A DNA stretch of 40,060 nt from a virus (IMGVR_UViG_2563366805_000009), one strand, 5' to 3'; positions 1 through 13,270 are shown, counted from the first letter of the stretch. Notes: generated from the letters alone by a model not told the origin. Numbers and translations are program-made.

Positions 1-1053
1 TTACGGGGTAATGCCAACCGCTGCCGCCACTTTGTCGCCACTTGGCAGCGTTGCCAGAGGATTGAAACGGAGCGCCGTTTCCAGATGATCTGGTGCCAGA
101 TGTGCGTAACGCATAGTCATTTTTATATCGTGGTGTCCGAGAATTTTTTGTAAGGCGAGAATGTTTCCACCCGACATCATGAAGTGCGCCGCAAACGTAT
201 GGCGCAGAACGTGTGTGAGTTGACCGCGAGGGAGCACGATAGACGTTTTTTCCATCACGGATAAAAATTGAAAATAGTAGTCTGTAAAGAAATTGAACCC
301 ATCAAGCGCCATGATCTCTTCGTAAAGCTCTTTACTGATAGGGATGCTTCTGTTTTTCTTCCCCTTCGTTCTGACAAAGGTAATTCGGTATTTGGTCACC
401 TGTGAGCGGGTAAGATTTACGGCTTCACGCCAGCGTGCGCCTGTGCTTAAGCATATCTTAACTACCAGTGCCAGAATTGGGTCCTGACGTTTGCAATCAG
501 CCAGCAATTCAACAATCTGCTCATGGGTAAGCCATGCCATCTCTTTTTCTGCGATGGTGAATTTTCGCATGTTCTCCAGTGGGTTCGGATACGACCACTC
601 GCCCAGACGGGATAGTTCGCTAAAAACACTACTTAGATAGCTTTGCTCCAGGTTAATGGTGACCGGGCTTGCTCCTTTCTTCCATTTCTCGCTGAAGTAG
701 ATCTCGCCTGTCAGGCGTTTATCTCGATAGTGGGCAAACATTTTAGAGGTGAGATCGGTTGCAAGAGGATTACCCAGAGCGTCAACCATCAACAGCAATT
801 TGTCATAGACATGCTGCCCAGCTGTCAGAGATTTACCATGTAGTTTGAACCATAGCTCAACTACGTCTTTCAGTGTTCGACGATCCACTGATTCACCCAG
901 CCAGGGCTTTGCTTCGGTTTCTTCCATCGTGTGGCGCTCAAAAGCCAGAGCTTCGCCTTTGGTGGCGAATTGTTTACGCACACGACGTCCACTACGTCCG
1001 GCGGGGTAACATTCGCAAAGCCATTTCCCTGTGGTGAGTTTTCGTACTGCCAT
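1..1053 (-). CDS. int: Phage tyrosine integrase (P2/186-type); stop codon is the first 3 nt of the window
   Basis: ORF 1..1209 minus; internal Met (MAVRKLTTGKW...) aligns with the N-terminus of P2-family integrases as recalled; C-terminal HxxR...Y-type region (LRHTFAAHFMMSGG...MRYAHL). Start placed at 1053 by that comparison, not by search. Confidence 0.85.
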   Translation of the reverse strand: MAVRKLTTGKWLCECYPAGRSGRRVRKQFATKGEALAFERHTMEETEAKPWLGESVDRRTLKDVVELWFKLHGKSLTAGQHVYDKLLLMVDALGNPLATDLTSKMFAHYRDKRLTGEIYFSEKWKKGASPVTINLEQSYLSSVFSELSRLGEWSYPNPLENMRKFTIAEKEMAWLTHEQIVELLADCKRQDPILALVVKICLSTGARWREAVNLTRSQVTKYRITFVRTKGKKNRSIPISKELYEEIMALDGFNFFTDYYFQFLSVMEKTSIVLPRGQLTHVLRHTFAAHFMMSGGNILALQKILGHHDIKMTMRYAHLAPDHLETALRFNPLATLPSGDKVAAAVGITP

Positions 1054-1241
1054 AAAAAATGCCCTCCAGTAGAGAGCATTTTTACTGTATGTATAACCAG
1101 TGTCAATGTATGAAATCCTACGACCATACATCTCACTGAAGCCATCATGAAGTTGGCTATTCTTTTTGCTATGTGAGCATGTAACTTTTGCGGTTAACCT
1201 GCGGCTCATTTTTATTTTAGACGCAGATATAAAAGCAAAAG

Positions 1242-1433
1242 TTATCGTGAGTTTTTAGTACAGATTTTTTTGGATTTACTAATAGTTCCATCATTGCAAA
1301 CGAATTTGCCATCTGAGGTACAGTGAGAAACACCTCCCTTTTTCCCTGAGCAGGGATAATTTCTAGCATAGGTAGTTAGTGGGTTTAATAACAAAGAACA
1401 TGACAAAACCACAAAAAATACCTTACCAAGCAT
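1242..1433 (-). CDS. Small secreted cysteine-containing protein (63 aa) with N-terminal signal peptide; AT-rich moron between cI and int
   Basis: ORF track; hydrophobic N-terminus [16 protein letters not shown], 4 Cys in mature part; GGGAGGA Shine-Dalgarno 5-6 nt upstream; starts 15 nt after the CI-like gene stop; AT-rich relative to flanks. Confidence 0.45.
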
Positions 1434-1448
1434 AGTTTCCTCCCGGTA

Positions 1449-2105
1449 CTATTTAATATACTTGACTGTTAAACTTATAATTTTACCAATTATTTCAATG
1501 TCTTCTATCTTGCATTCGAAGGCTCTGTTTCCACCCTCGACGAAGATTCTTCCACCGGGTAAACGAGTAATGTCACGGATCGTTATTTCGCCATCAATAC
1601 TTATTACCCATTTACCATCACGTATATCATCAAATTCTTTATCACAAATAAATTCAGAATTGTTATCTGTGATGACAAAAGGTTTTTTAAACGTAGAGGG
1701 TAGAAATCCCTTATCAAAAATATAAAAACCGTCTTTCTGCAATGCTCCATCAGACAATAAATATTTTTCTACTTCTATAGTATTTGTATTTGCTGATGCT
1801 TGCTTTGAACCATGCCCTGTTGTTAGCCAATTAAGCGAGGTGCCCGTTTCAAGGGCGCACTGGATTACCCAATCTGCTGGAAAAATATCACGCATATAGC
1901 GCGTTGCCATGGTGCTCTTAGAAACACCTAAATGATCACAGAGAGCCTGACGGGTACCGAACCCATATGCTTCAACTAAACGTTCTATGGCTTTCTTACC
2001 GCCGCTATTGAAATCCACAAGTCCTCCAAAGAAATCCAAAATTCGTTGACAGATTCCAAAAGCGATCTTAAAGTTGAACCAGAAGTGTTCTTTTGGAGCC
2101 TTCAC
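1449..2105 (-). CDS. cI: CI-type immunity repressor (HTH N-terminal domain, larger C-terminal domain), 186-like position upstream of int
   Basis: ORF 218 aa; HTH-like segment (LGVSKSTMATRYMRD); location and orientation match the cI-int arrangement of 186-family phages. Confidence 0.7.
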   Translation of the reverse strand: MKAPKEHFWFNFKIAFGICQRILDFFGGLVDFNSGGKKAIERLVEAYGFGTRQALCDHLGVSKSTMATRYMRDIFPADWVIQCALETGTSLNWLTTGHGSKQASANTNTIEVEKYLLSDGALQKDGFYIFDKGFLPSTFKKPFVITDNNSEFICDKEFDDIRDGKWVISIDGEITIRDITRLPGGRIFVEGGNRAFECKIEDIEIIGKIISLTVKYIK

Positions 2106-4232: not shown

Positions 4233-5086
4233 GCACCATCCTGAAATGGGCGGGAAATAAAACCGCCGTAATGTCCGAACTGAAAAAACATCTTCCTGCT
4301 GGTCCGCGACTAGTTGAACCTTTCGCGGGTTCCTGTGCTGTGATGATGGAGACGGATTATCCCTGCTATCTGGTTGCGGATATTAATCCTGATTTAATCA
4401 ACCTCTATAAAAAGGTTGCCGCTGATTGTGAATCGTTTATATCTCGCGCCAAAGTTTTATTTGAGATCGCAAACAGGGAGGTGGCTTATTACAACATAAG
4501 GCAGGAGTTTAATTACTCAACTGAAATTACTGATTTCATGAAAGCGGTATATTTCCTGTATCTCAATCGTCACGGTTACCGTGGGTTATGTCGCTATAAC
4601 AAGAGCGGGCATTTCAACATTCCCTACGGTAATTATAAAAATCCGTATTTCCCTGAAAAAGAAATTCGCGCTTTTGCAGAAAAAGCCCAGCGAGCAACGT
4701 TTATCTGCGCCAGCTTTGATGAAACGCTGGCGATGTTGAAGGCGGGGGATGTGGTGTATTGCGATCCGCCTTATGACGGTACGTTTTCCGGCTATCACGC
4801 TGACGGCTTTACTGAAGATGACCAGTATCACCTGGCATCCGTTCTTGAACATCGGTCATCAGAAGGACATCCGGTCATTGTTTCTAACAGTGACACATCC
4901 CTGATCCGTTCGCTGTATCGCAATTTTACTCACCACTATATCAAGGTAAAACGCAGCATCGGCGTAGCAGCTGGTGAGAGTAAATCAGCAACAGAAATCA
5001 TTGCTGTTTCCGGGCCGCGCTGCTGGGTGGGATTTGATTATTCGCGTGGCGTGGATAGTTCTGCCGTGTACGGAGTACGTGCATGA
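4229..5086 (+). CDS. dam: Dam-family DNA adenine-N6 methyltransferase (orphan, phage-encoded)
   Basis: N-terminal KWAGNK...EPFAGS AdoMet-binding region and catalytic DPPY motif ([10 protein letters not shown]); start chosen at internal ATG 4229, overlapping the previous stop. Confidence 0.85.
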
Positions 5087-7497
5087 GCCATGCCGATATG
5101 AGCAACTGCTGCGGCTTTAACGAGGCTGCCGCATCGTTCTCATGGAACAGCCCGAAAAAGGCCATTAACCCTTATCTGGACCCGGCGGAAGTTGCGCCGG
5201 TTTCTGCGCTTTCAAACCTGATCACTCTGTACGCTGCCGATAACGAGCAGGAACAACTGCGCCGCGAGGCACTGAGTGATCAGGTCTGGGAGCGTTATTT
5301 CTTTAATGAATCCCGTGATCCTGTCCAACGCGAAATAGAGCAGGATAAGCTCATTAGCCGGGCAAAGTTGGCGCATGAGCAGCAGCGTTTTAACCCGGAC
5401 ATGGTCATTCTGGCAGACGTCAGCGCCCAGCCCTCCCATATCAGCAAGCCGCTGATGCAACGTATTGAATACTTCAGCAGCTTGGGCAGGCCAAAGGCTT
5501 ATTCCCGCTATTTACGTGAGACGATTAAGCCATGTCTGGAACGACTGGAGCATGTACGCGACAGCCAGCTATCTGCATCTTTTCGTTTTATGGCAAGCCA
5601 TGTAGGGCTGGACGGCCTGCTGATTCTGCCTGAAATGAGTCAGGATCAGGTGAAACGCCTGTCTACCCTTGTCGCTGCGCATATGAGCATGTGCCTTGAT
5701 GCAGCTTGTGGTGATTTGTATGCCACCGATGACGTTAAGCCAGAAGAAATCCGCAAGACATGGGAAAAGGTGGCAGCGGAAACCCTGCGTCTGGATGTCA
5801 TCCCGCCTGCGTTTGAGCAACTCCGTCGGAAAAGAAACCGCCGTAAACCCGTGCCCTATGAACTCATTCCGGGTTCGCTGGCGCGTATGTTGTGCGCCGA
5901 CTGGTGGTACCGGAAATTATGGAAAATGCGTTGCGAATGGCGGGAAGAGCAGTTGCGTGCTGTCTGCCTGGTCAGCAAAAAAGCATCTCCCTATGTCAGC
6001 TATGAAGCCGTGATGCATAAACGTGAGCAGCGCCGCAAGTCACTGGAGTTTTTCCGTTCTCATGAACTGGTGAACGAAGAGGGCGACACGCTGGATATGG
6101 AAGACGTGGTAAACGCCAGCAGCAGCAACCCGGCGCACCGCCGCAATGAGATGATGGCCTGTGTTAAAGGTCTGGAGCTTATCGCGGAAATGCGCGGTGA
6201 CTGCGCCGTTTTCTACACCATTACCTGTCCGTCACGTTTCCATTCCACGCTCAATAACGGCAGACCAAACCCAACCTGGACAAATGCGACGGTAAGACAA
6301 AGCAGCGATTATCTGGTCGGCATGTTTGCTGCATTTCGTAAGGCGATGCACAAAGCCGGGTTGCGCTGGTATGGCGTGCGGGTGGCTGAGCCGCATCATG
6401 ACGGTACAGTTCACTGGCACCTGTTGTGTTTCATGCGCAAAAAAGACCGCCGCGCCATTACTGCATTGTTGCGTAAGTTTGCCATCCGTGAAGACCGCGA
6501 GGAACTGGGTAATAACACTGGTCCACGCTTTAAATCTGAGCTGATAAACCCGCGCAAAGGAACGCCGACAAGCTACATCGCGAAATACATCAGTAAGAAC
6601 ATTGACGGGCGTGGTCTGGCTGGCGAGATCAGCAAGGAAACGGGTAAATCCCTGCGTGATAACGCTGAATACGTTAATGCCTGGGCGTCTCTGCATCGTG
6701 TTCAGCAATTCCGCTTCTTTGGTATTCCGGGACGTCAGGCTTACCGTGAACTTCGCTTGCTGGCTGGTCAGGCGGCAAGGCAACAGGGTGACAAAAAAGC
6801 AGGTGCGCCGGTACTGGATAACCCGCGTCTTGATGCCATTCTGGCTGCTGCTGATGCTGGTTGTTTTGCCACCTACATCATGAAGCAGGGCGGCGTACTG
6901 GTTCCCCGCAAATATCACCTCATCAGAACCGCTTATGAAATCAACGAAGAGCCAACCGCCTATGGCGATCACGGTATTCGTATTTATGGCATCTGGTCAC
7001 CCATTGCAGAGGGCAAGATCTGCACTCATGCAGTGAAGTGGAAAATGGTTCGTAAGGCCGTTGACGTTCAGGAGGCGGCAGCCGACCAGGGCGCTTGCGC
7101 CCCTTGGACTCGTGGCAATAACTGTCCCCTTGCTGAAAATTTGAACCAACATGAGAAAGATGAATCAGCAGATGGGGATACCAGAACGGACATTACCTGC
7201 ATGGATGACAAGGAATTGCACGATTACCTGCACAGTATGAGCAAAAAAGAGCGCCGGGAACTGGCAGCAAGATTGCGCCTGGTTAAACCGAAACGGCGTA
7301 AAGACTACAAACAGCGAATTACAGAGTATCAGCGTCAGCAGCTCGTCTATGAACTGAAGTCCAGAGGATTTGATGGCAGCGAGAAAGAGGTCGATTTGCT
7401 CCTTTGCGGTGGCAGTATTCCGTCAGGAGCAGGCCTGCGTATCTTCTATCGGAACCAGCGTTTGCAGGAAGATGATAAGTGGCGGAACATGTATTAA
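5083..7497 (+). CDS. A: Replication initiation endonuclease (P2 gpA family, rolling-circle)
   Basis: 804-aa ORF; HWHLL (HxH) motif and conserved Tyr-containing regions typical of gpA-type Rep; position after dam/TraR genes. Confidence 0.85.
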
Positions 7498-7591
7498 TCA
7501 CGCGGGTTAACAATTCGTGCTCTTAATAATACCAGGCATATCAGGCTGATGAACGTAAAAAAACGTTTTACATCAGTAAGATTATTATATA

Positions 7592-7607
7592 CTGTAAATA
7601 TAAACAG
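7592..7607. promoter_or_regulatory. LexA (SOS) box CTGT-N8-ACAG upstream of small ORF
   Basis: Sequence TACTGTAAATATAAACAGTG (7590..7609) matches consensus TACTGTATATATATACAGTA at CTGT/ACAG and an A/T-only spacer; about 45 bp upstream of ATG 7651, which has an AGGAGG RBS. Confidence 0.55.
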
Positions 7608-7749
7608 TGGTTATATGTACAGTATTGCGTATGGTGTTATAGGAGGAAAGATGCAGGACTATTTTTTGGAGTCTTTGAAGCTCCAGCGCATTGATTTTTT
7701 TCTTAAGCTTGTAGCGGCTAGTGAGTGTAGTGATGAAGAGAAGGGGCTA

Positions 7750-8902
7750 AATAGCTGCGCGGAATAGTAGATCACTGAAAGGGAACTCAGCCCGGATTGT
7801 GCGATCTGATCAATCGCCAAACCAACCAAAATCACCAACCGGACTGAGCGATGCCGATCATAGTACCAATACCCCGTGGCGAACGACGCCTGATGCAGAA
7901 AGCTATTCATAAAACGCGTGATAAAAATCATGCCCGCAGACTCACGGCCATGCTGATGCTTCATCGGGGTGAACGGGTCAGCGATGTTGCCAGAACTCTC
8001 TGTTGTGCCCGTTCATCCGTTGGTCGCTGGATTAACTGGTTTACGCACTCAGGTATTGAAGGCCTGAAATCCTTACCCGCAGGGCGCTCCCGACGCTGGC
8101 CTTTTGAACATATCTGCACCCTGTTACGTGAGCTGATAAAGCATTCTCCCGGCGATTTTGGTTATCAACGTTCACGCTGGAGCACCGAATTACTGGCAAT
8201 AAAAATCAATGAGATAACCGGTTGCCAGTTACATGCAGGAACCGTTCGCCGCTGGTTGCCATCTGCGGGGCTTGTATGGCGCAGGGCCGCGCCAACTCTG
8301 CGTATCCGTGACCCACATAAAGATGAAAAGATGGCGGTAATCCACAAAGCGCTGGATGAATGCAGCGCAGAGCATCCGGTATTTTATGAAGATGAAGTGG
8401 ATATCCACCTTAATCCTAAAATCGGTGCGGACTGGCAGTTGCGCGGACAGCAGAAACGGGTAGTGACGCCGGGGCAGAACGAAAAATACTATCTGGCCGG
8501 CGCACTGCACAGTGGCACGGGTAAAGTCAGCTACGTGGGCGGCAACAGCAAAAGTTCAGCGCTGTTTATCGCTCTGCTGAAGCACCTGAAAGCCACTTAC
8601 CGGCGGGCGAAAACAATCACGCTGATCGTTGATAACTACATTATCCATAAAAGCCGCGAAACACAGCGCTGGTTGAAAGCAAATCCCAAGTTCAGGGTAA
8701 TTTACCAGCCGGTTTACTCGCCGTGGGTGAATCATGTGGAACGGCTATGGCAGGCACTTCATGACACGATAACCCGTAATCATCAGTGCCGCTCAATGTG
8801 GCAGTTACTGAAAAAGGTCCGCCATTTTATGGAAACCGCCAGCCCATTCCCCGGAGGAAAACATGGTCAGGCAAAAGTGTAGCGGTATTAGGCGCAGCTA
8901 TT
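7750..8902 (+). mobile_element. IS630-family insertion sequence (1153 bp) with TA target duplication in a CTAG target
   Basis: Terminal inverted repeats AATAGCTGCGC at 7750..7760 and 8892..8902 (reverse complement); TA at 7748..7749 and 8903..8904; flanks reconstitute C-TA-G; single 343-aa transposase ORF; length equals IS630 as recalled. Confidence 0.85.
7851..8882 (+). CDS. IS630-family (Tc1/mariner-like DDE) transposase
   Basis: 343-aa ORF with HTH N-terminus and DDE-type C-terminus (…VDNYIIHKS…), inside the TIR-bounded element. Confidence 0.9.
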   Translation: MPIIVPIPRGERRLMQKAIHKTRDKNHARRLTAMLMLHRGERVSDVARTLCCARSSVGRWINWFTHSGIEGLKSLPAGRSRRWPFEHICTLLRELIKHSPGDFGYQRSRWSTELLAIKINEITGCQLHAGTVRRWLPSAGLVWRRAAPTLRIRDPHKDEKMAVIHKALDECSAEHPVFYEDEVDIHLNPKIGADWQLRGQQKRVVTPGQNEKYYLAGALHSGTGKVSYVGGNSKSSALFIALLKHLKATYRRAKTITLIVDNYIIHKSRETQRWLKANPKFRVIYQPVYSPWVNHVERLWQALHDTITRNHQCRSMWQLLKKVRHFMETASPFPGGKHGQAKV

Positions 8903-9026
8903 TAGCTCTGCAGTGGGTTTCTGAATTGACTGATGAGTTGATGGCGAAAATTCGAAGCCATGAATACAGTAGGTCGATGGATGTAATCAGTTGAGCTTGT
9001 TTCGTTAGGACTTGATAAGGGAACCG

Positions 9027-9049
9027 AAAAGGGGCATTAAGCCCCTTTC
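9027..9049. terminator. Bidirectional Rho-independent terminator-like hairpin
   Basis: AAAAGGGGC-ATTAA-GCCCCTTT, T-rich on the plus side and A-run (T-run on minus) on the other; lies between the interrupted small gene and the convergent lipoprotein gene. Confidence 0.45.
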
Positions 9050-9061
9050 TCATAAGTTGAT

Positions 9062-9361
9062 TTAGTTGTTCCCCAAAGAGCCGGCCATGGCTGCATATTT
9101 AATTTCTTCGCTGGGTATTTCAGGATGTAGTTGAATTTGCCTGATGATATAGCCAGGAACTTCGTCACTCCACAGTTTCGCCGCGTCCTTACAGACCTTA
9201 TACGCGAAGTCTCTATTCTCAAAGGCATAGGATTTTCCGTATGCATATTGCTGACAGGCATGAACATAAGCTCCGAAGTCGCCGTCTTTATCTGGCAAAG
9301 CACATCCAGCTAAGGCTATGATGATTGCTACTAACGTAAAGGAGAAAGTTATACGTTTCAT
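9062..9361 (-). CDS. Small lipoprotein (99 aa), function unknown
   Basis: Signal peptide with lipobox (LAGC) at N-terminus; ORF track. Confidence 0.6.
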   Translation of the reverse strand: MKRITFSFTLVAIIIALAGCALPDKDGDFGAYVHACQQYAYGKSYAFENRDFAYKVCKDAAKLWSDEVPGYIIRQIQLHPEIPSEEIKYAAMAGSLGNN

Positions 9362-9469
9362 GGTCTCTTTCTAAGCGTTTAGCATTATTTAACTAAGGGG
9401 TATCTGCCGTGATTTGGTAGTCCCTGATATATATTCTCAGGGACTATGCTGAAGTAGCTTTAATTTTGA

Positions 9470-10276
9470 TTATTTAGAAAGGTACTTATCTCTAAGTTGA
9501 TTCAGTCTGTCAGCATCGCGTTCTGAAAACTCGGCGTCACCATAGATCGATTTCCCATCTGCGTCTTCAAGGCCAATGACTGTGACGGTAAATATAGCAT
9601 CAGCCGGAACTTTAAGTTTTCCCCAATCAGAGTATCTATTAGGGGCTAATTTCCAGTTGGCTTTCTCACCTGGTTCCAGACCTCCAGAAATTTTATAGTT
9701 GAAGACGTCAGAGAACCAAGGGACGCTTCTTCCTGGGCTGGCAATAACTCCTTTGAAGAATACTCTGGCAACCGCTTTGTCTGTTCCGTTTTCAACGCTA
9801 ATATCCAGAATTGGCTGATCATTGCCGTAATCCTCTTTCTGGAAATAAAAACGGGAACGTTCGACCTTGAAGGCTTTCATTTTTTCCGCAGCCTGTGTTG
9901 CAGAGGTTTGTTTGGCTTCCAGTTCTTTTATTTCTTGCAGAGCCTGTTCTTTCTCTCTCTTCTCACGCTCAAGGCGAATAGTTTGTGCGTAATTTATAAC
10001 CTCATCACCAGTTTTACCTTCCAACGCTGACTTAATTTTTGTTTCGTAGACGTCCCCAGAAGACGTTCCAGCCTGCATTAGCTCTCTCATGTTGATTTGG
10101 CTAAAGGCAACGACTTTAACTGCATCATCAAACTGAGCTTTTTTATCTGCAGGTAAGGACTCTCTTACTTTTTGAATGGACTCTTTCATCGACTGATCGC
10201 TTGATGCATCGATCTTCGGTTTGTCACAAGCAGTAAGCAGCAGAGCAAAAGCAATTACGCCAGTTAATTTCTTCAT
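9470..10276 (-). CDS. Lipoprotein (268 aa), function unknown
   Basis: Start moved to internal ATG (MKKLTGVIAFALLLTAC…, lipobox LTAC); charged coiled-coil-like middle region; ORF track 9470..10348. Confidence 0.6.
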   Translation of the reverse strand: MKKLTGVIAFALLLTACDKPKIDASSDQSMKESIQKVRESLPADKKAQFDDAVKVVAFSQINMRELMQAGTSSGDVYETKIKSALEGKTGDEVINYAQTIRLEREKREKEQALQEIKELEAKQTSATQAAEKMKAFKVERSRFYFQKEDYGNDQPILDISVENGTDKAVARVFFKGVIASPGRSVPWFSDVFNYKISGGLEPGEKANWKLAPNRYSDWGKLKVPADAIFTVTVIGLEDADGKSIYGDAEFSERDADRLNQLRDKYLSK

Positions 10277-10437
10277 ATCCCTATCCCAATCGTAAAAAAA
10301 CAAGGCTAATCCTAACAGGATTAGCGGGCATGACAAACTCATAGCCATATAGGTGTGCTGTATAAATTAGCGGGATGAGAAAGCCTGCACAGACCCTCAT
10401 GTTGAAACTTGATTTTAGCTCAAAAGAGCTGACACTA

Positions 10438-10618
10438 AATAACTGCGCGGAATAATGTTCCACTTTCGGTTAGCCCTTGGCCCTTGGCTCTTGCTGGGTA
10501 AGGCGTGGGGCCGTTTTCTTCGCCTGATCCTGCTGTATCTGGCCTACAGTATGTTGTCCTTACGCGACATGCCACATGTCAGTAAACGGCAGGTGTAGCA
10601 GTATTAGACGCAGCTATT
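10438..10618 (+). mobile_element. 181-bp MITE-like element with IS630-type terminal repeats, TA duplication in a CTAG target
   Basis: Left end AATAACTGCGCGGAATAAT matches the IS630 left end at 7750 (2 mismatches); right end GTGTAGCAGTATTAGACGCAGCTATT matches the IS right end (2 mismatches); TA at 10436..10437 and 10619..10620; flanking C…G; no ORF inside. Confidence 0.6.
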
Positions 10619-10805
10619 TAGTGTGTATTAAGCTGGCTCATATTTATGACTGGTTTCAAGGTTTGACCGATTTTCATGTCATGCATGTCTATGCTGCATG
10701 AGTTCGCATGATCGTTTGAGGATCGGTTTGGCTAAGACATGCCAGAACTGGCGGGCTTTTGCTCATGTCATGCAGGTGCATGAAAACTACTACATAAAGC
10801 GGGCA

Positions 10806-10824
10806 GGCGTGGCGGGGATACGAG
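10806..10824. other. Probable cos site (19-nt cohesive-end region) of the P2/186-family phage
   Basis: GGCGTGGCGGGGATACGAG resembles the recalled P2/186 cohesive end GGCG(A/T)GGCGGGGAAAGCA(C/T) over the first 13 nt; lies between the A-side accessory region and the portal gene, as in P2. Confidence 0.4.
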
Positions 10825-10983
10825 CGCGCGCTCGCTTAGTTTTGTAACACTCTGAGTAAGGTCGCTTTTTAGAAGCAAATGGCTTGCAAATTTTTTCAAC
10901 ATTGAGGTAATTTGTTAGGTATCGAAGGATAAATTAAGACAAGAGCAAATTCTTATTGCTTTTTGGATGACTAGGTGCAAGTT

Positions 10984-12090
10984 ATGACAGGTAGTGTCCC
11001 AGTAGTGCTTTCTGAGTCTGAGTTAAAGTCGATCTTGACCTTAACTGAACGTTTCACATGGAACGTTGCAAGGCCAATTATTGCGTCTTTAGGGCTGCCA
11101 ACAGGTAGGGGGCGTGAAGCAACAAACGAAAAAATACTAGAAAGCCTCATTGATCTTAAAAGTAAAGATAGGCAAAAGTTTGATGGCATTATGGCAAACG
11201 TAAATGACCTAATTTTGGGTCAGGTCGTTTATGGTGAAAAAGCAATATTTAGTTTGACTGTAGATAATAGTGTAATTAAAACACTAAATGACAGATTTAG
11301 TTTCCAATGGAATTTGATGAATCAACCATCATTATTGGTTGATTCGATCCTTGATGATGTCCAATTGCAAAATGCTGTAAAAAATCAACCTGAACTTGTT
11401 AATTATTCTATTCAAAACACCCAGTCAATACTTGTTTTTTCATCTGTCAGAGAATTAGTTGTAAGAGAAAAAATTCCCCCGTCAGCACTTGCGCAATACA
11501 AGCAGTTTGATGAAATTATTGCAAAGCGAAAAGAAAAGCGACAATGTTTTGATGTCTGTATATTAGACTCTGTTACTAATAAAATTCATGTTTTGGTAGA
11601 TACTAATGGTAATATTATTGGTGATAATGTTACTTTTGCAAAGAGTAACATTATTCGTGAATTGTATAATCATGTCGGTTATGAATTTAAATCATCGGAA
11701 AAAGATTTTTATCCGTTAATTGAGCCAATTTTCAAACAAAATTCATTGCCTTATTCAAAATTAAGCTATAAAGTCTTTGATTTGTCATTTTTGACGAATG
11801 AGGGGACTACGCATAAAGAAAAGAAAAATGTGGCCACTAAAGACTTACGTGATGATTTGTTTAATAAGGAAGGCATCAAAGCAGTAGGCAGTATTGGTTT
11901 GTATCGTATTGGAATTAGAGTTGATAGAAATAATCCAAAACTGCAATTAGCGGATAACGTAGAGCTTATCATTCCGGGAACACTCCGCAGGCATCTAGGA
12001 GGGAGTAGTTGCTCTCCTGTTAACTATGCTATATTAAGTAAATGTATATCCAAAGATGATTTCGAAACCCTCACAAAGCTGATATTATAA
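10984..12090 (+). CDS. Hypothetical protein, gene 1 of AT-rich three-gene operon (368 aa)
   Basis: ORF track 10975..12090 (GTG); ATG 10984 preferred, AGGTG RBS 6 nt upstream; no P-loop, no nucleotidyltransferase GS…DxD or RT YADD motif seen by eye; strongly AT-rich. Confidence 0.6.
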   Translation: MTGSVPVVLSESELKSILTLTERFTWNVARPIIASLGLPTGRGREATNEKILESLIDLKSKDRQKFDGIMANVNDLILGQVVYGEKAIFSLTVDNSVIKTLNDRFSFQWNLMNQPSLLVDSILDDVQLQNAVKNQPELVNYSIQNTQSILVFSSVRELVVREKIPPSALAQYKQFDEIIAKRKEKRQCFDVCILDSVTNKIHVLVDTNGNIIGDNVTFAKSNIIRELYNHVGYEFKSSEKDFYPLIEPIFKQNSLPYSKLSYKVFDLSFLTNEGTTHKEKKNVATKDLRDDLFNKEGIKAVGSIGLYRIGIRVDRNNPKLQLADNVELIIPGTLRRHLGGSSCSPVNYAILSKCISKDDFETLTKLIL

Positions 12091-12102
12091 TTGGAGTCAG
12101 CA

Positions 12103-12537
12103 ATGAAGGATGGTGATATGCCCAAGATCATCAAAGAAATGTGTGCAGAACGCCCTGAAATTGGGGCGTTAGCTTGCTATTTGTACGATGAAATCGAGGC
12201 AAGGGCTAAAAAATCATCAAATATAGCTTTAAGTTATAAGGATTTATTTAATATAGCTGGTGGTTATAATAAGGTTTTACAGCCAGAAACGTATGAGCAG
12301 GTTATCTATCCGGCCATACAAATTCTTTGTAGCCCAAAGGTTGATTTTTTAAAACTCAATTATTGGTTCATTGATGATTTTCATGACCCTGTAGAACTTG
12401 AAATAGAGGAAGTTATTGAGGCGGAAATCAGTCAATCTTTAGCAAACCCATTTACAGGGGAGCTTATGTATGACTATAAGTCATTCGTATTTCCTTTTTT
12501 TACATTAGATGAATCTAAATCAAAGGATATTATCTGA
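12103..12537 (+). CDS. Hypothetical acidic protein, gene 2 of operon (144 aa)
   Basis: ORF track 12091..12537 (TTG); ATG 12103 with GGAG 6 nt upstream; begins 12 nt after gene 1 stop. Confidence 0.55.
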   Translation: MKDGDMPKIIKEMCAERPEIGALACYLYDEIEARAKKSSNIALSYKDLFNIAGGYNKVLQPETYEQVIYPAIQILCSPKVDFLKLNYWFIDDFHDPVELEIEEVIEAEISQSLANPFTGELMYDYKSFVFPFFTLDESKSKDII

Positions 12538-13202
12538 TGTTAAAAATGTCTGCAGCAATGAGTTTGGCTGATATTGATAATGATATTTTTCTTCAGCGTA
12601 TTAATGCTTCTATTACTCGTGTTAGATTTGCACTTCAATCGTACGATAATTTCAAACAATTTGTCAGGATTGAACTTGATTCTGCTGTAAAGGAAATAGA
12701 AGAGAATTCAAATAAGTTAAACTTCGATTTAACAGAAGATCAGCTTACTTTAATTTTATTGGCCAATATCAAAAATAAAGATATGGGCATTGAAGCATTT
12801 CATGAAAATAATCAGCGCGGACATTGTGATATTACAATAAAACTAAAGGATTATATTTGGCATGGCGAAGCCAAAAAACATACATCTTCATATAGTTATT
12901 TATTTAAAGGGTATGCTCAACTCACTGAACGATATAGTACAGGGACCGTAGACAGCGCAAGTGGTGGATTGATTATCTATACTCGTAATAGAAAATGTAA
13001 TGAAATGATGAGCAACTGGAAGGCGCATTTAGATAAATTCGCACCAAGAATTCATGCCTGTAAATCTATAACGATTACTCCTTGTCAAAAAAATCCATTG
13101 GTTTTTTATAGCCAGCATGTTCACACAGTTACTCAACTGAATTATGAAGTTATTCATTACCCTGTAAATCTATATCATGAGCCTGTAGATCCGGATCTTT
13201 AA
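12537..13202 (+). CDS. Hypothetical protein with PD-(D/E)xK-like nuclease motif, gene 3 of operon (221 aa)
   Basis: Start overlaps gene 2 stop (TGATG); motif …AFHENNQRGHCDITIKLKDYIWHGEAKKH (E…D-x13-E-x-K). Confidence 0.55.
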   Translation: MLKMSAAMSLADIDNDIFLQRINASITRVRFALQSYDNFKQFVRIELDSAVKEIEENSNKLNFDLTEDQLTLILLANIKNKDMGIEAFHENNQRGHCDITIKLKDYIWHGEAKKHTSSYSYLFKGYAQLTERYSTGTVDSASGGLIIYTRNRKCNEMMSNWKAHLDKFAPRIHACKSITITPCQKNPLVFYSQHVHTVTQLNYEVIHYPVNLYHEPVDPDL

Positions 13203-13242
13203 GTTTTAATGCTCATGTCTTGGTGATTTTAAACTAAAGAAT

Positions 13243-13270
13243 AAAAGCCTGTTTGTACAGGCTTTTAAAT
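13243..13270. terminator. Bidirectional Rho-independent terminator between operon and portal gene
   Basis: Perfect 10-bp inverted repeat AAAAGCCTGT/ACAGGCTTTT with 4-nt loop, T-run after the stem on both strands. Confidence 0.5.

Follow-up and report, generated by a model that had tools for sequence, protein, structure and literature searches.

The lysogenic operon of phage 186 is annotated as cI-int-orf69, read from pL/pE, and P2 shows the corresponding order C-int. In the P2-related Vibrio phage K139 an annotated PL lysogenic operon has the order cI-orf2-glo-int, with glo annotated in GenBank as 'periplasmic protein; involved in phage exclusion'. Accessory genes for exported proteins are already known from the cI-int interval. 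K139-like Vibrio phages are reported to have a hotspot there (PMC9122126), and in P2 the stretch from integrase to primase accounts for 8% of the defence systems (PMC13586616). Here we describe a gene in this interval on the viral stretch IMGVR_UViG_2563366805_000009 (40,060 nt; 'the window' below means this whole stretch), which carries a complete P2/186-type prophage of about 34 kb between rcdA and ybjL, together with the host genes ybjL to ybjN. The gene is an open reading frame (ORF) directly behind the cI repressor gene, and its product belongs to the YdcA family. YdcA of Escherichia coli K-12 (b1419; NF007462; PF27300) appears in the literature as a small protein predicted to be periplasmic, no function being given; deletion of ydcA renders E. 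coli W sensitive to 3-hydroxypropionate, and induction of the gene by acid, acting through YdcI, has been reported (PMC7642389). As shown below, the only solved relative of the family is Dis2, a subunit of the Dot/Icm secretion system of Legionella pneumophila, which has been described as Legionella-specific, dispensable and without structural relatives.

The ORF is almost certainly a real YdcA-family gene, and it is under purifying selection. Its product scores 115.8 bits against the NCBIfam model NF007463 (PRK10040.1-2; cut-off 93), with residues 5-63 aligned to model positions 1-58 of 58, while the model of K-12 YdcA, NF007462, gives 68.5 bits, under its cut-off of 118. The protein also matches phrog_6000 (E 1.9e-34), and the Pfam family PF27300 'YdcA' is precomputed on its protein cluster and on its neighbours; a direct Pfam scan of the ORF gave only a sub-threshold chance match, the release used predating PF27300. 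An identical protein, WP_000900883.1, is named 'YdcA family protein' in newer RefSeq and 'hypothetical protein' in older annotations. Comparison with the E. coli B allele revealed 11 synonymous differences and one non-synonymous difference (ratio of non-synonymous to synonymous polymorphism, pN/pS, 0.027), and comparison with the HE302 allele gave a pN/pS of 0.09. Taken together, the NF007463 score above cut-off, the PHROG and Pfam assignments, the RefSeq name and the low pN/pS values support both the reality of the gene and the selection on it. An earlier interpretation of the window made from its sequence alone (the sequence-only reading) had pointed out the ORF without giving it a family; the family turns out to be catalogued already by NCBIfam, Pfam, PHROG and a RefSeq name, with a core-chromosome paralogue, ydcA, in K-12 that is 57% identical. 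A literature search with the RefSeq accessions, PF27300 and 'YdcA family protein' found no paper on the prophage subfamily, and most papers retrieved with 'ydcA' deal with unrelated namesakes in Bacillus, the gonococcal island and F-like plasmids.

The YdcA family comprises 459 clusters at 50% identity (E <= 0.001). Of 5426 complete E. coli genomes, 590 (about 11%), laboratory B strains among them, carry the full cassette, meaning the ORF with its 3' spacer, and at least 535 IMG/VR stretches encode a relative. Over a 1.2-kb query spanning cI, the ORF and int, E. coli MS 115-1 and C 236-04A are 100% identical to the window, while E. coli B/BL21 shows 94% identity over the 395-bp cassette. Megablast of positions 1000-2200 against a collection of phage genomes aligned the int end only, so that none of the sequenced enterobacterial phages in that collection carries the cassette. 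A copy 100% identical to the ORF is also recorded on E. coli 'plasmids' of about 55 kb, NZ_CP148400.1 and NZ_CP148585.1, which are single-cell assemblies.

A new finding is that cI and a YdcA-family gene are repeatedly linked, in Peduoviridae of four genera. Across Escherichia, Klebsiella, Yersinia and Haemophilus prophages the distance from cI to the ORF ranges from -1 to 49 nt. In E. coli B the ORF stands directly behind cI, at 15 nt; in E. coli HE302 and several E. coli and Klebsiella contigs the gap is 15-23 nt, and a KAP NTPase gene follows; in Yersinia prophages it is 49 nt. The Haemophilus phages HP2 and S2 have a YdcA-family ORF of 60 amino acids (aa) that overlaps the cI stop codon by one base; it is unannotated in their GenBank records and is newly recognised here. 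Across these cI-linked loci the mature peptides are 65-92% identical, with identity between the cI proteins falling as low as 29-35%. A comparison of the cI-int interval across relatives was a check named by the sequence-only reading, and it found the ORF conserved behind cI in related and distant prophages alike.

The same linkage was seen in a wider viral sample. Since the scan of IMG/VR that yielded the 535 stretches gave near-identical copies only, and hence no information on diversity, a second scan used the HP2 peptide as the query and a sample of 80 diverse viral contigs was taken. Sixteen contigs, all HP2-like, have cI immediately upstream of the peptide gene, and in the 12 HP2-like contigs whose available sequence extends to int, int lies 0.8-1.3 kb downstream. 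Three more, with a cI of the Yersinia type (65-72% identical), show the match flanked by cI at 69-70 nt on its upstream side and by int at about 100 nt on its downstream side, which brings to 19 of the 80 the contigs in which cI adjoins the peptide gene. In four further contigs with a Yersinia-type cI the peptide gene is separated from cI by an additional 0.95 kb or so, and the remainder carry the gene in other contexts. Other phage carriers are the Moraxella Mcat phages, where it lies between head and tail genes, Acinetobacter phages and Pseudomonas phage Y12; plasmid carriers are found in Acinetobacter and Rhizobium and include MOBQ plasmids of about 4 kb. Family members also occupy core, non-mobile chromosomal sites in Moraxella and other taxa. 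In HP2 the ORF following the peptide gene encodes a hydrophobic, signal-like N-terminus (MRKIFLLVLILISSNSILA) joined to a tRNA_anti-like OB-fold domain.

The anatomy of the gene in the window was largely as the sequence-only reading had it: a 63-aa ORF with a strong ribosome-binding site 15 nt past the repressor stop (the coordinates are correct; Table 1), oriented like cI and int (all three lie on the minus strand) and encoding a mature part of about 40 residues with four cysteines (C28, C38, C46 and C58, after Ala23). The same reading called the ORF AT-rich, which is true in that its GC content is 35.4% against 50.9% for the whole window and 48.6% for int, but the adjacent cI is likewise low (38.4%). 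Its label of 'moron' holds only in part: the gene is absent from 186 and P2 and sibling prophages carry other cargo in its place, but it has no promoter of its own and sits inside the lysogenic operon. It is therefore not a classical moron but a promoterless gene embedded in that operon. To the right of cI come a cox/apl-like gene, cII (Phage_CP76), fil and replication genes, in the same order as in 186.

The predicted product is a small pre-protein. Its leader, read from the sequence, has K4, a 12-residue hydrophobic core, T at -3 and A at -1. In alignments of 46 and of 150 homologues this leader of about 23 residues is variable while always keeping a hydrophobic core, and the Ala at -1 (A23) is at least 90% conserved; the mature part, with its four cysteines, is near-invariant in the same alignments. 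The family motif, PCSGxKGG(V/I)xxC...F(V/I)CxDGxxSxSK..C, consists of invariant or near-invariant columns, and the window peptide has every conserved one of them (P27, C28, S29, K32, G33, G34, C38, F44, C46, G49, S52, S54, K55 and C58). A fifth cysteine, C12, lies within the hydrophobic leader. We considered a lipoprotein reading of the VLSC at residues 9-12 and rejected it, as this cysteine is only 11 residues in and is not conserved among homologues. AlphaFold2, run with the family alignment, predicted a short helix and a beta-hairpin with a predicted local distance difference test score of 84-92 over residues 31-60, and a further helix at residues 3-15 in the leader. The conserved leader pattern, the description of K-12 YdcA as predicted periplasmic and the fact that Dis2 is modelled from residue 39 or 40 onwards, near the outer membrane, all argue for export, and the peptide is very probably periplasmic. 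'Secreted', the word used in the sequence-only reading, then most likely stands for export to the periplasm and not for release from the cell.

Dis2 (Lpg0823; PDB 7MUC/7MUD, chain AN) was the top PDB match with every profile that we used: the profile of 150 representatives reached it at E 6e-7, that of 46 sequences at 1.5e-4 and that of the mature part only at 0.051, the next matches being at 0.15 or worse. Foldseek gave a probability of 0.98 at 39% identity. The aligned Dis2 motif reads CS-K-GG-I--C..G--VCN(D/N)G--S, and the Dis2 leader aligns at the same position as that of the window protein. Dis2 is modelled over residues 40-115 in the OMC map and 39-116 in the C1 map, near the outer membrane and with all cysteines in disulfides. 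Tandem YdcA proteins of two and three lobes exist (P0079-P0083), and Dis2 appears to be a diverged tandem duplication of the YdcA domain, a connection that is new here. Also new are fusions in which a leader and YdcA domain precede a secreted nuclease. These were found in 5 of the 150 representatives and involve three unrelated folds: Endonuclease_NS (three proteins, including P0195 and P0165), SNase (P0120) and PLD-like (P0183). Such fusions hint at a role that is related to nucleic acids or, perhaps, to anchoring in the periplasm. Other fusions are to a VasL domain of the type VI secretion system (T6SS), in one representative, and to basic tails of the PBCV type (P0116 is also among the fusion proteins).

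Considering the operon layout together with the annotated operons of 186 and K139, co-expression of the ORF with cI in lysogens is likely. No promoter-like or terminator-like site was found in the 15-nt spacer between cI and the ORF, and the ORF is not followed by a canonical minus-strand terminator. Beginning in its stop codon there is, on the other hand, a long imperfect hairpin without a U-tract; the 77 nt at 1170-1246(-) fold with a free energy of -20.5 kcal/mol (z -4.5), and the 207 nt from the 3' end of the ORF to int, 1054-1260(-), are unusually structured RNA (z -5.6). This hairpin may be an mRNA 3' structure, a stabilising or processing element of the cassette. A second hairpin, of 13 bp and with a U-run, stands immediately before int (43 nt at 1048-1090(-); -17.5 kcal/mol, z -5.4), its 5' arm overlapped by a promoter-like sequence. 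Segment 1054-1113 is 98% identical in sibling prophages bearing other cargo, which suggests that this second hairpin is part of the int leader and not of the cassette. It may terminate or attenuate read-through into int, and could be an attenuator or translational switch that holds Int low on read-through lysogenic transcripts; with a terminator-like hairpin so placed, transcription may favour cI and the peptide gene over int. A minus-strand terminator at 1188-1204 was considered and rejected, as that hairpin pairs on the plus strand only. An Rfam scan of positions 900-2500 returned nothing meaningful.

We compared the cI-int interval with that of siblings that have the same integrase and the same rcdA-adjacent insertion site but other cargo. 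Phage vB_EcoM-813R9 has PD-Lambda-1 between cI and int (PADLOC-DB v2, E 3e-120), annotated as 'chromosome segregation ATPase'; the HE302-type sibling has YdcA plus the KAP NTPase, which matches PDC-S20 (E 2.9e-171); and another sibling has PDC-M11A and PDC-M11B together with a DUF3644-like ORF. In Klebsiella phage 4LV2017 the interval holds an unmatched protein of 349 aa. As judged from these gene contents, the cI-int interval of 186-like prophages of E. coli is a slot for defence genes, a context that is new here.

The best overall explanation of these observations, which we put forward tentatively, is that the gene supplies lysogens with a disulfide-bonded periplasmic factor conferring an envelope-level benefit. 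By analogy with the annotated operons, the peptide gene would share with cI the transcripts that start at the lysogenic promoters, and its own strong Shine-Dalgarno sequence would serve translation. The pre-protein would be exported by Sec and cleaved after Ala23, and the four cysteines would be oxidised to two disulfides to give a 40-residue peptide with a net charge of +7. This peptide would stay in the periplasm, probably close to the outer membrane like Dis2, where we guess that it may bind a conserved polyanionic envelope or nucleic-acid ligand; the guess draws on the basic character of the domain (mean net charge of the 31-residue family core, +3.2) and on the N-terminal fusions to secreted nucleases. 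Ligand binding might then give the lysogen a barrier against incoming phage or foreign DNA, and such superinfection exclusion, in analogy with K139 Glo, would be the most probable form of envelope benefit. An exclusion or defence role is itself a guess, and a rather doubtful one, prompted by the other, defence-related occupants of the slot, the reported cI-int hotspots and the position of glo in K139.

Several points weigh against an exclusion factor. None of the models in PADLOC-DB v2 matches the window peptide, and the peptide shows no homology to Glo (BLASTP E 0.16, 7 identities in 30), with tblastn finding no match in Vibrio phages. Functional evidence for the family consists only of the 3-hydroxypropionate phenotype of K-12 ydcA and its reported acid induction. 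The mature peptide is conserved across genera in a way unlike arms-race defence proteins, and this extreme conservation, together with the core, non-mobile family members, favours a housekeeping role in the envelope. Moreover, DNA injected by phages normally travels inside a channel, so a free DNA binder in the periplasm may not reach it.

In its most far-reaching form, which we regard as improbable, the proposal would make the YdcA domain a minimal disulfide-stapled basic module that binds DNA or polyanions in the periplasm, and the cI-linked copy a one-peptide barrier against incoming DNA. This would explain the nuclease fusions, carriage by phages of the naturally competent Haemophilus, Moraxella and Acinetobacter, and the origin of Dis2 by tandem duplication. 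If it were true, the targets would be superinfecting phage, conjugation and natural transformation, the last of which can cure prophages, and the peptide would represent a new class of repressor-linked exclusion factor.

The main rival is host physiology: the prophage copy may add a dose of the chromosomal YdcA activity, in envelope or acid/organic-acid stress tolerance, and so raise the fitness of the lysogen with no effect on phages or foreign DNA. The 57%-identical paralogue is a core gene between trg and cybB, and its 3-hydroxypropionate and acid phenotypes are those cited above; the family members in non-mobile chromosomal contexts point the same way, and the very high conservation of the mature peptide suggests a conserved host target. 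At the same time, phages and plasmids from many genera have acquired the gene repeatedly, and its slot is one that defence genes otherwise occupy. As ydcA is already in the host, a second copy needs a reason, and the prophage subfamily has an equivalog model of its own, the ORF falling under the K-12 YdcA cut-off (68.5 versus 118 bits). On balance we consider this explanation unlikely, although none of the other rivals comes through as well.

The company of the KAP NTPase raises a different possibility, namely that the peptide is an accessory or sensor partner of PDC-S20 and the window copy an orphan left after loss of the NTPase. Indeed, in HE302 and in E. coli and Klebsiella contigs a 443-aa KAP NTPase (PDC-S20) begins within about 12 nt after the peptide gene. 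However, the version without NTPase is common (the 590 genomes above) and under strong purifying selection, Yersinia and Haemophilus prophages have the peptide gene and no KAP NTPase in the slot, PDC-S20 is catalogued as a single-gene candidate, and a periplasmic peptide and a cytoplasmic NTPase would have no obvious contact, all of which makes a partnership quite improbable.

The similarity to Dis2 could instead mean that the peptide modulates outer-membrane machines (type IV secretion/conjugation systems, secretins or pili), docking like a one-lobed Dis2 on lipoprotein assemblies of the OmpA or VirB7 type and thereby altering conjugative entry or receptor availability. UniRef names the identical protein 'Conjugal transfer protein' (A0A0J2AJ46_ECOLX, A0A2V2I184_ECOLX), a 3.9-kb MOBQ plasmid of Acinetobacter has a homologue placed after a small traD gene, and besides the single VasL fusion one plasmid copy lies inside a T6SS cluster. 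But the UniRef name is unverified automatic text with no visible basis, Dis2 is itself dispensable and only distantly homologous, and we found no secretion-system genes, those of type IV systems (T4SS) included, in the window; we see this explanation as a long shot. Still less probable is a released toxin-like peptide, a lysogenic conversion factor resembling heat-stable enterotoxin or a bacteriocin and acting outside the cell. There is a superficial resemblance in format, the mature part being strongly basic and about 40 aa long with 4 Cys and its short precursor having a predicted signal peptide, but the Pfam scan matched no toxin or bacteriocin family, no export or immunity genes are nearby, the close paralogue is a K-12 core gene and the solved relative, Dis2, stays periplasmic. 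Finally, a spurious ORF in an AT-rich spacer, for which one could cite its shortness, its base composition and the older 'hypothetical protein' annotations, is refuted by family hidden Markov model scores over curated cut-offs, a pN/pS of 0.03 and conservation from Escherichia to Haemophilus.

Should the proposed periplasmic factor prove to have a phenotype, a widespread family with 459 clusters, a core member in E. coli and carriers among phages and plasmids from many genera would gain its first function, and the lysogenic-conversion or exclusion genes of prophages would be joined by one for a very small periplasmic factor that is easy to synthesise. By-products of the analysis are a likely evolutionary origin for the Dot/Icm subunit Dis2, a missed gene in the HP2 and S2 reference genomes, and evidence for a defence slot between cI and int of 186-like prophages in E. 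coli.

The window prophage also has cargo in the classical P2 hotspot between gpA and the portal gene (about 7500-13250, following the gpA replication endonuclease at 5083-7497). Its contents, listed in Table 1, had no PADLOC match. An otherwise identical prophage in NZ_CP109924 lacks the insertion sequence (IS), and its gpA-portal cargo differs from that of the window.

Table 1. Features of the cI-int interval, its product and other cargo regions. Positions count from the first letter of the window, except for the comparison loci, which carry their own numbering; aa, amino acids; CDS, coding sequence.
Feature	Position	Strand	Basis or remark
YdcA-family pre-protein CDS	1242..1433	-	ATG start, 63 aa + TAA stop; ORF list
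Predicted Sec signal peptide, residues 1-23 (MLGK ... NPLTTYA)	1365..1433	-	Sequence, family alignments; predicted cleavage after Ala23
Mature peptide, 40 aa	1245..1364	-	4 Cys, net charge +7, pI 9.7, 4.29 kDa
15-nt cI-ORF spacer, taccGGGAGGaaact	between cI stop TAG (1449-1451) and ORF ATG	-	Sequence
Shine-Dalgarno GGGAGG	1439..1444	-	5 nt before ORF ATG, within the 15-nt spacer; read from sequence
cI repressor, 186 type, upstream gene	1449..2018	-	Phage_CI_repr E 3.3e-31, Phage_CI_C E 4.7e-29 (Pfam); RefSeq 570-nt CDS
Tyrosine integrase int, downstream gene	1..1053	-	Pfam Int_N + Phage_integrase; RefSeq annotation
Cassette absent from 186	about 1114-1448		335 bp, inserted between cI and int
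Long imperfect RNA hairpin	1182..1244	-	Starts in ORF stop codon; no U-tract
13-bp hairpin + U-run	1055..1083	-	Immediately before int ATG; 3' arm holds int Shine-Dalgarno GGAGGG (1062-1067)
Promoter-like TTGACA-17-AAAAAT	1106..1078	-	Overlaps 5' arm of the 1055-1083 hairpin
cI-int cargo of comparison loci	L005 4085-5761, L009 1642-2973, L010 3579-5783, L006 3567-4616
IS630-type transposase (DDE_3)	7851-8882	+	gpA-portal region
DUF6694 lipoprotein	9470-10348	-	gpA-portal region
Three co-oriented ORFs without assigned function	10975-12090, 12091-12537, 12537-13202	+	gpA-portal region

Set beside the known systems, the window protein and K-12 YdcA both have precursors in the range of about 57-63 aa, with a predicted signal peptide and a motif that begins PCSGxKGG(I/V)SHC and ends SKK.C, and are 57% identical over 53 aa; the window gene differs in being prophage cargo behind cI instead of a core chromosomal gene, with a separate equivalog model. 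Dis2 is periplasmic and disulfide-stapled, as is predicted for the window peptide, but as an outer-membrane-proximal subunit it belongs to a type IVB secretion system, whereas the window lacks T4SS genes, and it has two homologous lobes with five disulfides where the window peptide has a single lobe and four mature cysteines. The operons of 186 (cI-int-orf69) and P2 (C-int) have the same order, orientation and regulatory neighbours (an apl/cox-like gene, cII and fil) as the window prophage; in agreement with the sequence-only reading, neither has a gene at this place, cI and int abutting in 186 and a 115-nt C-int gap without annotated gene being present in P2, where the window prophage has its 335-bp cassette. 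The defence hotspots of P2-like phages offer the same cI-int interval, filled in siblings with PD-Lambda-1, PDC-S20 or PDC-M11, but compared with typical hotspot cargo the window peptide is far more conserved and stays beside cI even when extra cargo lies downstream. Glo of K139 offers the same genomic arrangement, the lysogenic operon of a P2-related phage coding for an exported protein in its cI-int interval; Glo is 137 aa long and its gene adjoins int, while the window gene adjoins cI.

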